Source: a virus (Duplodnaviria; Caudoviricetes). From it: a DNA stretch of 54,945 nt. Below are positions 1 to 54,945 of the stretch, one piece after another; position 1 is the stretch's first letter, and every line of letters starts with the position of its first letter. Made by a program: the position numbers and the translations under genes. The notes under the pieces are model-generated. The model was given only the letters and a program-made list of their open reading frames with translations. It had not been told where the DNA came from and did not search any database. The stretch spans positions 1 to 54,945 of IMG/VR virus record IMGVR_UViG_3300047565_000115; one strand, 5' to 3'.

Positions 1-6
1 GGATTC

Positions 7-29
7 TAACTTTTTAGATGTTACTTTTG
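7..29 (+). promoter_or_regulatory. Bacteroidota -7 promoter element (TACTTTTG, 22-29) overlapped by TAAC-N9-GTTA inverted repeat
   Basis: Matches TAnnTTTG consensus upstream of ORF 54; same operator-like repeat at 3233, 41608 and 49356. Confidence 0.6.
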
Positions 30-53
30 ATTCTAGATTTAAACAATTAGAAA

Positions 54-326
54 ATGAGAACATTAATAACAACAAGTACGCAACAAAAAACAGTAAATGG
101 TATTATGATTAATTTTGTATCAGAATACATATTGGACAATGGTAAAAGTTGTTTTACTTATAAATTGACAGAGGTTGTAGACAATGGTGATTCTTATAAT
201 TATAATTGCTTAGGTTTTAAAACTCTTGAATTTGAATCATGGAATAATTCTTATATTGAAAGAGTTAAAAATGGTAGAATGGTTGAATATACTGATAGTT
301 TATTAAATCATTTGGCAACGAGATAA
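54..326 (+). CDS. Hypothetical protein
   Basis: 90-aa ORF after promoter and TTTAAACAATT A-rich initiation region. Confidence 0.7.
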   Translation: MRTLITTSTQQKTVNGIMINFVSEYILDNGKSCFTYKLTEVVDNGDSYNYNCLGFKTLEFESWNNSYIERVKNGRMVEYTDSLLNHLATR

Positions 327-365
327 AGATTTTTCATAGTGTATGGATTAAGGTTGAATTAGTGA

Positions 366-430
366 CACTACTTTTGACTTTTAGTTGGGAGTAGTGCAAG
401 TTGAGATAAGTCTCAAATAAAGTTCTTGAA
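366..430 (+). promoter_or_regulatory. Twin hairpin + boxA-like element, copy 1
   Basis: Hairpins 366-396 and 401-416 followed by ATAAAGTTCTTGAA. Confidence 0.45.
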
Positions 431-436
431 GGTATT

Positions 437-548
437 GGCTTAGTATGTGGCGGTTACCGTTAGACGCAATAATTCATACACAAACACACTAATGGCCTAG
501 AATTAAAAAAAGCGTGTGTGTACGTACTAAGTTATATTATTAATTCTA
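437..548 (+). ncRNA. Candidate structured RNA (multi-stem, possible pseudoknot)
   Basis: 12-bp stem 437-448/522-533, inner stems 449-461 and 475-481/514-520, crossing pairing 498-505/541-548. Confidence 0.35.
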
Positions 549-595
549 ATTCGGGCACACCATTTGCAAACGGTTAAGTTGTTCGAATACGATAA

Positions 596-643
596 CCCGA
601 TGAAAGTCGGGCAAATGGCAATATTGCCGATAAAAGTTCTTTA
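596..643 (+). promoter_or_regulatory. Twin hairpin + boxA-like element, copy 2
   Basis: GNRA hairpin CCCGAT-GAAA-GTCGGG, hairpin 616-629, then ATAAAAGTTCTTTA. Confidence 0.45.
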
Positions 644-661
644 TTGAGTGAATAAATGGTA

Positions 662-751
662 TTTTGTGTAGCTCATTGGCTAGAGCGTTAGCATTCCGAA
701 AGAGTTAGGCTCTTGTGCTAAAGGTAGGTTGTTCGACTCAACTCACAAAAT
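662..751 (+). tRNA. tRNA-shaped RNA with expanded 24-nt anticodon loop (nominal anticodon TCC/Gly)
   Basis: Acceptor TTTTGTG/CACAAAA, TA, D arm GCTC/GAGC with GG, anticodon stem TTAGC/GCTAA, V loop AGGTA, T arm GGTTG-TTCGACT-CAACT; no encoded CCA. Confidence 0.65.
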
Positions 752-822
752 CTAAATTTATTTATCACTGCCTAATGGCGAGGGTAATATAGATTTTTCA
801 AGCAACATGGGTTAGTATAAAT

Positions 823-851
823 AGAAGTGGGTCATGCTCACTTCTTATTTT
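823..851 (+). terminator. Intrinsic terminator-like hairpin
   Basis: AGAAGTGGG..CTCACTTCT followed by TATTTT. Confidence 0.5.
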
Positions 852-877
852 CAAAAATCAATTAAACAATTAATTAT

Positions 878-1093
878 ATGAAACGATTATTTTTTATTTT
901 AACAGTATTCACTTTGTTTTCTTGTCAAGTTCCACAAAGTGAAAGAACAAAAAAAGTTCAAGAATTGACTAATAATACAAGTGTGTACGACTTAAAAGTT
1001 GTTGTAATTGATGGGTGCGAATATTTACAATATCATACCTACCACTATGATGCCATTACTCACAAAGGAAACTGTAAAAATCATTCAAAATGA
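878..1093 (+). CDS. Small lipoprotein
   Basis: MKR + hydrophobic stretch + lipobox LFSC. Confidence 0.7.
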   Translation: MKRLFFILTVFTLFSCQVPQSERTKKVQELTNNTSVYDLKVVVIDGCEYLQYHTYHYDAITHKGNCKNHSK

Positions 1094-1317
1094 AAAAAGA
1101 ACAACCATTAACTTTATCACAAATCCTTCTAATAGGCTATTTCATTGGCTTAGGGGCGTTAATTATGGTCTTGGGTATAATTGCCTTCTTTAAGTTAAAA
1201 TTGTGGCTTATAGGTGTTATTGTCGGGCTACCTTTGGGAATATGGGGATGTTTAAAGATACACGAGTATTTGTTTGAGGGTGGATTGGAAAGAGACTTTA
1301 TAACAAAGAAGAAATGA
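1090..1317 (+). CDS. Two-TM membrane protein
   Basis: Two hydrophobic helices; ATGA overlap with upstream gene. Confidence 0.7.
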   Translation: MKKEQPLTLSQILLIGYFIGLGALIMVLGIIAFFKLKLWLIGVIVGLPLGIWGCLKIHEYLFEGGLERDFITKKK

Positions 1318-1574
1318 AAATGTATATTGTTGCGTATTCAAGTGGTTCTTATGAAGATTGGAGAGAACATTTAATTTTTGTGACACAAGATAAAGAAAAG
1401 GCTGAAAAGTATATTGAAAAGGCTAATAACTTATTAGTCAAATGTAAAGAGTTTTATGATAAAAAATCAAGTGAAGAATTAGATGCTAATCTTGTAGAGT
1501 TTTTTTTCACGTCAAGAAGTATGGATTTTAACCATGTAAATAGGTTTTACATAAAAGAAATAGAAGTAAGATGA
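1314..1574 (+). CDS. Hypothetical phage protein
   Basis: ATGA-coupled ORF. Confidence 0.7.
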   Translation: MKMYIVAYSSGSYEDWREHLIFVTQDKEKAEKYIEKANNLLVKCKEFYDKKSSEELDANLVEFFFTSRSMDFNHVNRFYIKEIEVR

Positions 1575-3059: not shown

Positions 3060-3221
3060 TTGAACAAGAGACAAAGAAAGAAAGCTAAGAAAAAAAGAGT
3101 TAATAAACTTATCATAGAAATGGCAGAATTGTATTTAAGTGGTATGATTGGTGCAAGAAAGTTTTTAATGTCAACATGGGATGAAGAATACCCACCTTAT
3201 CAAACAAAAATAAACCCTTAG
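3060..3221 (+). CDS. Small basic protein (53 aa, not in ORF track)
   Basis: TTG start after TTAAACAAA, MNKRQRKKAKKK..., TAG stop. Confidence 0.5.
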   Translation: MNKRQRKKAKKKRVNKLIIEMAELYLSGMIGARKFLMSTWDEEYPPYQTKINP

Positions 3222-3224
3222 ATA

Positions 3225-3255
3225 TTTGTTTATAACTTTTTTAATGTTATATTTG
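3225..3255 (+). promoter_or_regulatory. Bacteroidota sigma70 promoter with TATAAC-N9-GTTATA operator-like repeat
   Basis: TTTG 3225-3228, 19-nt spacer, TATATTTG 3248-3255. Confidence 0.75.
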
Positions 3256-3279: not shown

Positions 3280-3558
3280 ATGGAATTTTTAGGAACTAAA
3301 GGCAAGTGGAAACAAAATGGATTTGCAGTATTTGTCGGAGAACAAGAGCATATAGGCTCAAATGTTATATGTCGATTCCATAATGGGCTTGAAAGTTATC
3401 AGAAAGAACAACAACAATACAACGCCTTACTAATATCAAAAGCCCCTGATATGCTTGAAATGTTGAAGGAGTTGGCAAATATAAAGTCGTCGTCTTTTAT
3501 TTTAGACGAAATACAAGTTAGAGTAGAACAATTAATAAAAGAAGCGACATCAATATGA
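3280..3558 (+). CDS. Hypothetical phage protein (GTKGKW...NALLISKAPDMLE type)
   Basis: Recognisable common phage accessory motif. Confidence 0.75.
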   Translation: MEFLGTKGKWKQNGFAVFVGEQEHIGSNVICRFHNGLESYQKEQQQYNALLISKAPDMLEMLKELANIKSSSFILDEIQVRVEQLIKEATSI

Positions 3559-4070
3559 AAACAACAGTAGAACACCCCGATGGAACAAAGTTAGTACCAT
3601 TCGAAGGAGGATGGAAGGTAGAGACAGAATTGGTGACTGGCAAATGGTATAAAAGTGGAAAATGCTTATGCTTTTATAAATCAGAAGAAGAACAATACGG
3701 TTTTCATGGTGGATATGGAGATTGGATGGATAAAGCATATTGGATGACTCATTTAGGAAACGCATCTACTCAATGGACTTTAGCAAGCGAAGAAGAAGTA
3801 AAGGAGGCATTGATAAAAGAGGCTGAACGTAGGGGTATAGTTAAAGGAGTTACTCTTGCTAACGTCGGAATAAATAATAAATTCTCTTTTAAATTTCAGC
3901 CTATAACTAATTTTTATCTACACTATACAACTTTATTAGATACAGGCAATGGTTATGCTTTCCATGATGGTCAATGGGCAGAAATTTTAAGCAACCACAA
4001 CGAAAAGATACTTGAAAGAATAGCGACAATAGAAAAGGAGTTGGAACAATTAAAAGCAGAATTGAAATGA
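3555..4070 (+). CDS. Hypothetical protein
   Basis: ATGA-coupled ORF with C-terminal coiled coil. Confidence 0.75.
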   Translation: MKTTVEHPDGTKLVPFEGGWKVETELVTGKWYKSGKCLCFYKSEEEQYGFHGGYGDWMDKAYWMTHLGNASTQWTLASEEEVKEALIKEAERRGIVKGVTLANVGINNKFSFKFQPITNFYLHYTTLLDTGNGYAFHDGQWAEILSNHNEKILERIATIEKELEQLKAELK

Positions 4071-4426
4071 AAATAGAAAACACATTAGAAAATAGAACAA
4101 AGTTTTTTTCTCTTTATTATGGGCAAAAAGTGTTATATATTGGAGGATTAGGATTAGTTGTAATGTGGCTTGGTGGATGGAATTTGAGGCACCCAGATTT
4201 TTTTCTTCAACTCAAACCACTTGAAAGTATAAGTGATAATGATGCAAAATATTTAGGATTTTCAGATAATATTTCGGCAACTACGACTTATTTAAAATCA
4301 CTTGGAAAGGAATTAAAAGAAGCTGACTATCTACGTTCAAAGGGTTATGCTTTACCTTGGATGGATTTAAGTGTAGATGATTTGGTTGAATATGGATGGA
4401 TAAAATTAAGCAATGAATTGAAATGA
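4067..4426 (+). CDS. Hypothetical phage protein
   Basis: LKPLESISD..DYLRSKGYALPW motif; flanked by 13-bp direct repeats. Confidence 0.75.
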   Translation: MKIENTLENRTKFFSLYYGQKVLYIGGLGLVVMWLGGWNLRHPDFFLQLKPLESISDNDAKYLGFSDNISATTTYLKSLGKELKEADYLRSKGYALPWMDLSVDDLVEYGWIKLSNELK

Positions 4427-40876: not shown

Positions 40877-40925
40877 ATATATTTGTGTCGCAATATTGCA
40901 TAAAACCATTGAAAAATAAAGAATA

Positions 40926-41574: not shown

Positions 41575-41599
41575 ATTTTGTAAAGTTTTTAATAAAATG

Positions 41600-41630
41600 T
41601 TTGTTTATAACATTTAAATAGTTACATTTG
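41600..41630 (+). promoter_or_regulatory. Bacteroidota promoter with TAAC-N9-GTTA repeat
   Basis: TTTG 41600-41603, 19 nt, TACATTTG 41623-41630. Confidence 0.75.
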
Positions 41631-49326: not shown

Positions 49327-49347
49327 AAAAAATAATTAAAATAAATA

Positions 49348-49378
49348 TTGTTTATTAACTTTTTTAGTGTTACATTTG
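49348..49378 (+). promoter_or_regulatory. Bacteroidota promoter with TAAC-N9-GTTA repeat
   Basis: TTG 49348-49350, 20 nt, TACATTTG 49371-49378. Confidence 0.7.
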
Positions 49379-54390: not shown

Positions 54391-54707
54391 TGACAAAAGA
54401 AAATACAATAAAAGTTAAAATCATGGAAAGAAGAATATATTTAAAAATAGAGAAATTGCAAATATTTGGCATATTACTATCTATTGAGATTTGCAAAATA
54501 AATGAACTTGAATTAGTTCTTCGCGGATATACGGCTAATACAGAAAAGCCAAAGATTGTTATGGTAGCCCATTTACGATTTTGGCAATCTATTTTGCACC
54601 CACGAAGAATCTTTAAGTATGTAAAGCAAATAGTCAAGAAAGTAAAAGACTATGAAGAATTTACTAAAAGACAAATAATTAAAGACTTAATAAAAAGTGT
54701 TGAGTAA
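54387..54707 (+). CDS. Hypothetical protein
   Basis: Coupled ORF. Confidence 0.6.
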   Translation: MMTKENTIKVKIMERRIYLKIEKLQIFGILLSIEICKINELELVLRGYTANTEKPKIVMVAHLRFWQSILHPRRIFKYVKQIVKKVKDYEEFTKRQIIKDLIKSVE

Positions 54708-54945
54708 TGACCAAAGAAACTCCACTAACCCAAGAGCAAGAGAATGAGTTTACTTTGAACCGATTAGGTTATTACTGTAAGGTCAGAAGCGTTTGGAGTC
54801 AAACTAAAAAGAAGAATGACTTTAAGTTTGACATCATAAAATACGAGAACGATAAGGAAGTTTTAATACAAGCTGGCAGGAAACTTTTTTCGTGCGGTGA
54901 ACTTGAAGCAATAAAGCAAAGAGACAGTATAATAGAATATTATTT
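54707..54945 (+). CDS. Hypothetical protein running off the window end
   Basis: TAATG coupling; MTKETPLTQEQ.. open to the last base. Confidence 0.6.
   Translation, partial: MTKETPLTQEQENEFTLNRLGYYCKVRSVWSQTKKKNDFKFDIIKYENDKEVLIQAGRKLFSCGELEAIKQRDSIIEYY

Follow-up and report, generated by a model that had tools for sequence, protein, structure and literature searches.

The 54,945-nucleotide (nt) stretch of phage DNA analyzed here, which we refer to as the window and which comprises the complete IMG/VR record IMGVR_UViG_3300047565_000115, carries within its first kilobase two copies of a unit composed of two hairpins joined by a 4-nt linker, an A-rich spacer, and a word resembling the boxA of ribosomal RNA operon (rrn) leaders. 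The two units (366-436 and 596-661) have the same architecture and different sequences, as an original prediction made from the sequence alone had claimed and as direct reading and a base-pairing script bore out. We estimate a probability of approximately 0.5 that the units are an rrn-leader-like Nus/boxA module, the purpose of which would probably be to keep transcription going through an untranslated stretch. The evidence consists of the architecture, its conservation with compensatory changes, its likeness to host rrn leaders, and the layout of the promoter and terminator around the units.

Architecture of the units and its conservation

Coordinates of the features are collected in Table 1. 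Hairpin pairs were tabulated by script; a MAFFT alignment of four units was not structure-consistent. The cores originally proposed (366-430 and 596-643) stand, and the units extend further on both sides, through a 5′ flank and, in the 3′ direction, to 436 and 661. The 5′ flanks of both window units share TTAAG(G)TTG..AAT, and the 3′ ends read ..ATTGG in unit 1 and ..ATTGAGTGAATAAATGG in unit 2. The unit 1 word, GTTCTTG, begins at 422 directly after ATAAA. Unit 2 does open with a GNRA-capped hairpin, the loop of its first hairpin (H1) being GAAA.

The sole relative found among viral contigs was the 57-kb contig L002, with a match of 78% identity to the protein 2226-2987. Blastn detected no likeness to L002 upstream of gene 2226-2987, and the plan of L002 3415-4380 was read by eye. 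The architecture is conserved there in three more copies: all five units, two in the window and three in L002, consist of hairpin, 4-nt linker, hairpin, A-rich spacer, and word, and their stem sequences differ. This conservation runs counter to the refuting outcome named with the original prediction, an architecture absent from relatives. Each L002 unit precedes a compact RNA, the locus closes with a terminator-like hairpin before the next open reading frame (ORF), and the promoter and terminator layout equals that of the window. When window unit 2 was compared with L002 unit 1, 21/21 cells paired, with 5/11 pairs altered on both sides, whereas sliding the partners by 1 to 3 columns as a control left merely 14 to 55% of cells paired. 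The 5′ flanks are swapped between the two phages, with TTAAGGTTGAAT preceding window unit 1 and L002 unit 2, and TTGCAAAC..ATACGATAA preceding window unit 2 and L002 unit 1 (positions 3889 and 3910). A near copy of the unit 1 flank, GATTAAGGATTG, stands before L002 unit 0, and AGTTCTTT..ATTGAGTG.AT.TA.AATGG is common to window unit 2 and L002 unit 2.

A loose descriptor scanned against the window and L002 gave five matches on the + strands, four of which are units, and four on the − strands, compared with 0.77 per run in shuffled sequence; the descriptor misses window unit 1, the word of which is one T short. The covariance-model check that accompanied the original prediction gave the following: model R1, built from two units, recovers significantly just its own two sequences, scores window unit 1 at 11 bits (E 8.5), and finds no further copies in the window or L002. 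No match to window 300-900 was obtained with blastn in distant mode against 50,697 phage records, and the flanking small proteins had no relatives in viral contigs. The pattern AGTTCTTT..ATTGAGTG occurs in at least 119 stretches, about the chance number by a rough estimate; the L002 contig was absent among the 80 listed matches of these loci, and L114, which gave one short extra blastn match, is coding sequence and was rejected as a relative. Three loci contain ATACGATAA..GAAA..GGCAAATG, one being L002's contig and the other two near-identical unrelated contigs with no hairpin. The longer word in metagenome contigs gave seven loci, none with hairpins or a tRNA, which by eye are unrelated and mostly coding. 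Among 47 loci with TTAAGGTTGAAT..AGTTCTT, the real relative is L002's contig alone; L144, in which two hairpins and AAAAAGTTCTTC precede a portal-like ORF, was judged a chance occurrence, as its composition differs and no other word is shared.

Contigs from four freshwater DNA runs were compared with window 200-1400, and the likeness of the relatives to the window ends at the word, at 427, 634, and 642. In variant A, unit 1 H1 is followed by a different second hairpin (H2), a GAAA-capped hairpin of four pairs, and by ATAAAGTTCTTTAAGAT, with the core intact; a metagenome variant reads GTTCTTTAAGAT at the position of window 417-436. Beyond 634, variant B reads GTAATTTGAGAT, the same variant word as in L002 unit 1. 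Variant C has a different tRNA-like start beyond 642, and variant D is longer than the window by 111 letters between 634 and 640. Because the likeness breaks at the word, the units appear to mark joints where related phages exchange RNA cargo.

The word in host rRNA leaders and before other stable RNAs

To compare the word with boxA of the presumed host group, we used 121 loci containing the 5′ end of Bacteroidota-type 16S genes, approximately ten of which have other metagenome-assembled-genome labels; counts rest on the 105 loci whose leader spans 250 nt or more. G[TC]TCTTT[GA] is present in 55/105 leaders, and GTTCATTGA, GATCTTTGA, or similar variants in 35 of the remaining 50, giving a G[TA]TC[TA]TT[GA]-type word after an A-rich run in 90/105 overall. 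The leader profile is A-rich, then GTTCTTTGAA, then ..(A/T)TTGA.., in agreement with two published forms, the B. subtilis AUGAUCUUUGAAA behind a hairpin (PMC13753749) and the gamma-proteobacterial GYTCTTTAANA (PMC5725501). Many leaders have one or two hairpins upstream of the word, and L207, L216, and L236 (Chitinophagaceae or Sphingobacteriaceae labels) have a promoter, two hairpins, AAAA, and GTTCTTTGAAAG.

The phage sequence closest to a host leader is L002 unit 0, which reads AAAGTACATTGAAAATAT and matches an 18-mer of a Polaribacter rrn leader at 17/18 bases (one mismatch); it is the only site at a distance of 2 or less in L002 and the window on both strands. In an edit-distance comparison of 2258 seed sites, which provides ranks only, all five unit words are within the best 137, and the window words occupy tiers 2 and 3, unit 2 being in the second-best tier. 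The unit 1 word differs from the L287 rrn leader word GTTCTTTGAAGGTATTG by one missing T. A boxB-like position is taken by the two hairpins upstream of the word in 5/5 units. The units lie in an ORF-free stretch, with the promoter at 1-29 upstream and a tRNA-like gene and a folded RNA downstream, and would be transcribed from that promoter.

The host-type word AAAGTWCATTGAAAATAT was found at 32 viral-contig loci, one of them L002's own contig. It abuts a transfer-messenger RNA (tmRNA) of 114 bits in four loci representing one sequence (L307 110-518, identical to L301, L309, and L317) and a tmRNA of 65 bits in four loci representing a second sequence (L308 501-906, identical to L315, L322, and L331); these viral tmRNAs begin 7 to 8 nt after the word. 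The word is also found 11 nt before a permuted tmRNA in two loci (L306 248-518, identical to L310), and 6 nt before tRNA-Asn within a six-tRNA array in one locus; another locus has it 250 nt ahead of a tRNA-Arg(tct) that carries an insert of 101 nt. By eye, the remaining loci are apparently coding or unexplained sequence. In the tmRNA-bearing viral contigs, some of them 270 to 290 kb, the tmRNA lies directly behind the host-type boxA word together with either a promoter or a hairpin.

In five Flavobacteriaceae genomes, AGTTCATTGAAA occurs 19 times, compared with 6 for the reversed control. When 17 of the 19 loci were scanned with Rfam, the word was located before 16S in two, 160 nt before a tmRNA and behind a promoter and Flavo-1 hairpin in one, and near tRNAs yet upstream of their promoter in one; 13/17 contained no Rfam RNA family. 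In L337 1322-1700 (Arenibacter label), Rfam Flavo-1 is a long hairpin between a TAnnTTTG promoter and a boxA-type word in a tmRNA leader, and Flavo-1 may be a stable-RNA leader element instead of a free small RNA. A Myroides-labelled genome (G002:C1:3196635-3197618; L340, L344, L348, and L350) contains four AGTTCATTGAAA copies exactly 324 nt apart in a tandem repeat, at which no Rfam family was detected.

Cargo RNAs, flanking genes, and the phage

Table 1. Features of the RNA locus at the start of the window and positions of the L002 units.
Feature	Coordinates	Strand	Sequence or structure	Basis
Truncated copy of canonical Bacteroidota-type promoter	1-29	+	−7 box TACTTTTG at 22-29	Window 1-50 aligns with promoter family
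ORF upstream of RNA locus	54-326	+	90 aa, no known family	ORF scan, protein family scans
Conserved 5′ flank of unit 1	348-365	+	TTAAGGTTGAAT..	Identical 12-mer before L002 unit 2 at 4045
Unit 1 H1	366-396	+	14 nested pairs (G-U counted)	Pair script; present in every predicted fold
Unit 1 linker and H2	397-416	+	CAAG (397-400); H2 401-416, 6 pairs, loop TAAG	Fold, pair script
Unit 1 A-rich spacer and boxA-like word	417-436	+	ATAAA, then GTTCTTGAAGGTATTGG	Sequence
Structured RNA S1	437-533	+	Long irregular hairpin or three-way junction; closing stem starts 9-10 nt after the boxA-like word	Fold
Conserved 5′ part of unit 2	556-595	+	Small hairpin with loop ..TTGCAAAC.., single-stranded word ATACGATAA	Both recur before L002 unit 1
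Unit 2 H1	596-611	+	6 pairs, GAAA loop	Fold, pair script
Unit 2 linker and H2	612-629	+	CAAA (612-615); H2 616-629, 5 pairs	Fold, pair script
Unit 2 A-rich spacer and boxA-like word	630-661	+	ATAAAA, GTTCTTTA (636-643), ATTGAGTGAATAAATGG	Sequence
tRNA-like gene	662-752	+	Without 15-nt hairpin insert (701-715), a 76-nt tRNA-Arg, anticodon CCG (696-698)	Rfam, ARAGORN
Trailer	753-822	+	Two words common to L002: AAATTTATTT at 754, GAGGGTA at 780	Word comparison
Intrinsic-terminator-like hairpin	823-851	+	10 pairs (823-845), T-rich tail	Terminator scan
First ORF after RNA locus	878-1093	+		ORF scan
L002 unit 0	3446-3500		H1 3446-3474, CCAG, H2 3479-3492, AGAAA, GTACATTGAAAATAT
L002 unit 1	3920-3965		H1 3920-3935 (GAAA loop), CAAA, H2 3940-3951 (GAAA loop), ATAAA, GTAATTTGAAAT
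L002 unit 2	4067-4130		H1 4067-4097, CTTA, H2 4102-4115 (GAAA loop), then GTTCTTTGTATTGAGTG

The original prediction placed a structured RNA after each unit. The one after unit 2 (662-751) is a tRNA-like gene, and the fold of the one after unit 1 (437-548), which includes S1, is not above shuffles on its own (z −0.96). The tRNA-like gene scores 45.5 bits against the Rfam tRNA family RF00005 (gathering 29; E 1.9e-8), with Infernal placing 21 letters in the anticodon loop instead of the model's 4; a whole-window gathering run with default filters missed it. ARAGORN calls it Ser(cga) without introns, and Arg(ccg) with a 15-nt insert when introns are allowed. The insert is itself a hairpin. We refer to the gene as tRNA-like because the normal 7-nt anticodon loop, UUCCGAA on a 5-pair stem, arises solely after removal of these 15 nt. 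In a relative metagenome contig, C696T is the single listed difference in 662-752 (three rows fall outside the table), and the resulting UCG is still an Arg anticodon.

The L002 counterpart of S1 is an unrelated 64-nt hairpin. With all 4227 families of Rfam 15, tRNA was the sole match in window 250-950 at E up to 10, and no relevant match was found in L002 2900-4500 at E up to 5; the set presumably includes GOLLD, ROOL, Flavo-1, and the tRNA mimics skipping-rope, DUF2693-FD, and salivarius-1. Further insert-bearing genes were detected by ARAGORN: at the relaxed threshold only, a tRNA-Pro(tgg)-like gene with a 10-nt insert at 37/38 (L002 4149-4235) and a tRNA-like gene with an approximately 120-nt insert (L002 3515-3724), and at default settings the tRNA-Arg(tct) with its 101-nt insert in L304 (73-249, − strand; Rfam 52 bits), an unrelated 139-kb viral contig. 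The insert-bearing genes of L002 and L304 adjoin boxA-type words. The approximately 145 nt between the first L002 tRNA-like gene and unit 1 (3725-3870) look structured, with hairpins, GGAAGGAAAGTCC, and AACCTGCTTAGCC, and have no Rfam match; RNase P-like words in L002 3790-3840 were likewise without an Rfam match and were discarded. Inserts of 10 and 15 nt are far too short for group I self-splicing. Our literature search on short introns of phage tRNAs brought up nothing beyond a review of group I introns. We regard as quite doubtful the further idea that an rrn-style Nus-loaded transcript makes tRNAs with anticodon loops interrupted at or near 37/38, the 10- and 15-nt inserts of which would be either an undescribed kind of intron in bacterial viruses, requiring a cut-and-join activity, or masked decoys, look-alikes that bait host anticodon nucleases.

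No ORF of at least 30 aa is present on either strand in 327-877, and this region folds better than 100/100 shuffles (z −3.61). The hairpin at 823-845 with its T tail, predicted originally as a terminator downstream of the units, is the sole terminator-like hairpin found by a scan of 1-1500; many positions in its two arms are altered in a metagenome relative, and by hand reading the pairing is still kept. Members of the canonical Bacteroidota promoter family, TTTG-N19-TAnnTTTG, are located at approximately 3248, 41623, and 49371 of the window. These copies span 3219-3255, 41594-41630, and 49342-49378, with more near 40878, 11986, and 9535, and the family motif is followed by ..ATAATTAAAC.ATTAA. 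No TAnnTTTG box is present between 369 and 1229. The promoter copy at 1-29 is the sole canonical promoter upstream of the terminator, and is likely the start of a transcript through ORF 54-326 into the RNA locus. There is no TAnnTTTG box between the terminator and ORF 878, and since no canonical promoter separates them, the ORFs from 878 on appear dependent on terminator read-through.

ORF 54-326 has no similarity to the ORF at the equivalent place in L002. The last 243 bases of the window (54701-54943) are homologous, at 60% on the protein level, to the L002 ORF upstream of the equivalent RNA locus, and for this reason the window end probably joins the window start. The contig is probably circularly permuted and a nearly whole genome, despite a completeness estimate of 52%. 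Its large ORFs are all on the + strand, and its proteins include terminase, portal, and tape measure (PHROGs), as well as lysozyme, primase, ERF, and RusA (Pfam, 63 proteins). A portal search returned 79 phage records, all with Bacteroidota hosts, at identities below 31%. The contig is that of a siphovirus-like phage of Bacteroidota-type bacteria. In agreement with the earlier statement that no N-like gene was recognizable, the Pfam scan of 63 window proteins recognized no family of N, Q, RNA ligase, or RNA polymerase, and the PHROGs scan of 21 proteins no N- or Q-like protein, N-like proteins being small and easily missed.

Proposed mechanism, alternatives, and comparison with known systems

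We infer transcription as drawn here, Nus-factor binding, and an effect on termination along the following lines. The region 327-877 would be the untranslated middle of a transcript begun at the promoter 1-29 and extending past the 90-aa ORF. It contains two modules built on the plan of the leaders found before stable-RNA genes of Bacteroidota, each consisting of two hairpins, a 5- to 6-nt A-rich spacer, and the word GT[T/A][C/A][T/A]TT[G/A]A, often with ..ATTGA.. after it, and each situated 9 to 20 nt before a compact RNA, S1 for the first and the tRNA-Arg-like RNA with its 15-nt insert for the second. Once transcribed, the boxA-like word would bind host NusB-S10, which together with NusA and NusG would convert RNA polymerase to an rrn-type antitermination complex. 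This complex would resist Rho across 550 nt of ribosome-free RNA and aid folding of the cargo RNAs, and a fraction of polymerases would pass the terminator into the ORFs from 878 onward. Such read-through is plausible.

According to published work, boxA is enough to trigger the rrn antitermination complex, this complex blocks Rho and interferes with intrinsic termination, and the B. subtilis rrn leaders have a hairpin and then AUGAUCUUUGAAA (PMC13753749). No publication describing boxA ahead of phage RNA genes came up in our literature search.

Several points weigh against this reading. The rrn complex is mainly anti-Rho, and passage of a 10-pair intrinsic terminator is the weakest step. Because all five units are homologous to one another, the likeness they share cannot be counted as five independent observations, and L002 was the only related contig found. 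Both words of the window itself match boxA weakly and are not significant alone: that of unit 1 is a T short of the invariant TTT, and unit 2 has U where 96% of leaders carry A. By a position weight matrix (PWM), unit 1 scores 8.8 bits and the unit words of the window and L002 span 5.8 to 10.0 bits, against yardsticks of 23.1 bits for the real-leader median and an average of 13.2 bits for the shuffled-window maximum; unit 2 is outside the six best + strand sites. An nhmmer profile of rrn boxA gave E values of 0.99 (window unit 2), 5.4, and 6.6, the window copies having 0.99 and 5.4, and chance sites in coding regions outscore the unit words. The word GTAATTTGA, found in L002 unit 1 and a metagenome variant, alters two positions that are 94 to 97% conserved in leaders. 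The original interpretation is partly supported: the comparison with Bacteroidota rrn leaders that accompanied it speaks for the term boxA-like, and the window's own copies score weakly by PWM and nhmmer.

The breakpoints described above at 427, 634, and 642, the swapped 5′ unit halves of the window and L002, the variant that has another tRNA-like start behind the same leader, and the variant with the 111-nt insertion, together with cargo stems that begin 9 to 20 nt after the word, are also consistent with a processing and shuffling cassette. Its hairpins and AU-rich word would be recognition or protection signals for RNases (E/G, III, or P context) that set the ends of the cargo RNAs and have no effect on termination, and the word would serve as a homology patch for cargo exchange between phages. 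We consider this unlikely: it leaves unexplained the closeness of L002 unit 0 to host rrn boxA and the presence of the host word before tmRNA and tRNA genes of unrelated viral contigs. It is also not exclusive with antitermination, and rrn leaders do both. Somewhat less probable is a terminator-promoter cassette, in which the hairpins would end the upstream transcript and GTnnTTTG would be an unusual −7 box from which each small RNA is transcribed separately. The variable pair of letters in the word, TC or AA, does fall where TAnnTTTG has its nn, the distances from the word to the cargo RNAs and to the tmRNAs of other viral contigs would suit a promoter, and a perfect TAnnTTTG occurs inside H1 of window unit 1 (369-376) and L002 unit 2 (4077-4084). 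However, the recognizable promoters of this phage are canonical, a conserved −33 element is missing from the units, no T tails follow the hairpins, and in host rrn leaders the word is 60 to 100 nt downstream of the real promoter. The boxes inside H1 are oddly spaced from any TTG (12 nt, or 15 and 23 nt) and stand at non-homologous positions; they are possibly chance occurrences or internal promoters.

We give very little credence to a put-like RNA, whose twin hairpins would work on RNA polymerase themselves with no need of Nus factors, as those of HK022 do, the word being incidental. Two adjacent hairpins upstream of a terminator and the lack of a recognized N- or Q-like protein in the protein scans would fit, but the stem sequences are wholly unconserved between copies and the most conserved parts (linker, spacer, and word) are single-stranded. 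We rate as equally improbable that the locus is a functionless leftover of a host leader picked up by the phage or of a tRNA cluster in decay: the window words deviate from the host consensus and a T-arm-like GTTGTTCGAAT is found at 577-587, yet structure is kept via compensatory changes, the architecture is kept in five copies and the metagenome variants, and the region folds better than its shuffles. Ribozyme classes, mimics of clustered regularly interspaced short palindromic repeats (CRISPR), integron attC sites, and retron RNA were considered and dropped on comparison by eye.

If the Nus/boxA reading is true, the virus borrows the rRNA machinery of boxA and Nus factors to drive polymerase through folded untranslated RNAs into downstream genes, and would do this with no phage-encoded protein of the N or Q type. 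This would be a third phage antitermination route, beside protein-dependent nut/qut and RNA-only put sites. Hairpins combined with a host-type boxA would then be a sequence flag for unrecognized phage RNA genes, a flag that led here to phage tmRNAs, a permuted tmRNA, a tRNA array, and insert-bearing tRNAs.

Among known systems, the HK022 put RNA, proposed originally as a parallel, has two adjacent hairpins upstream of terminators, and this hairpin count proved to be the sole tie, no put model having come up in the Rfam scans; the phage units have a 4-nt linker, stems that vary, and conserved parts that are single-stranded. In T4-type phages, promoter-stem-loop (PeSL) cassettes lie on either side of small ORFs and contain early promoters of the sigma-70 type. 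The units are like PeSL in being short repeated regulatory cassettes that bracket small cargo and mark shuffling joints, and differ in that the cargo is RNA and no canonical promoter lies inside the unit. Like the lambda nut site, the units are a phage signal in which a boxA-like word goes together with a hairpin capped by a GNRA-type loop. A nut site has boxA ahead of boxB and depends on N. In our units the hairpins precede the word, the reverse order, and no N family was found among the scanned proteins; on this comparison of sequence features, membership in the lambda nut type was ruled out.

Use of boxA outside rRNA operons is documented in two sources, one describing boxA before the suhB and CRISPR operons (PMC13753749) and the other giving the gamma-proteobacterial boxA consensus GYTCTTTAANA and naming CRISPR operons as an example (PMC5725501). 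Those sites are chromosomal and match the exact host consensus, whereas the phage element is duplicated and diverged. The bacterial rrn leader (boxB hairpin, boxA, and boxC; NusA, NusB, S10, NusG, SuhB, and S4) has the same order of hairpin or hairpins, A-rich run, word, and structured untranslated RNA, and the phage word is of the type found in most Bacteroidota 16S leaders examined. The word is repeated before each phage RNA, as boxA is before 16S and 23S (PMC13753749). The phage units differ from rrn leaders in being phage-borne, in lying between protein-coding ORFs, in having a small RNA and a tRNA-like RNA as cargo, in the degenerate words of the window, and in always having two hairpins with a fixed 4-nt linker, and their Nus binding is a prediction. 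In its predicted working, the unit most resembles the rrn leader.

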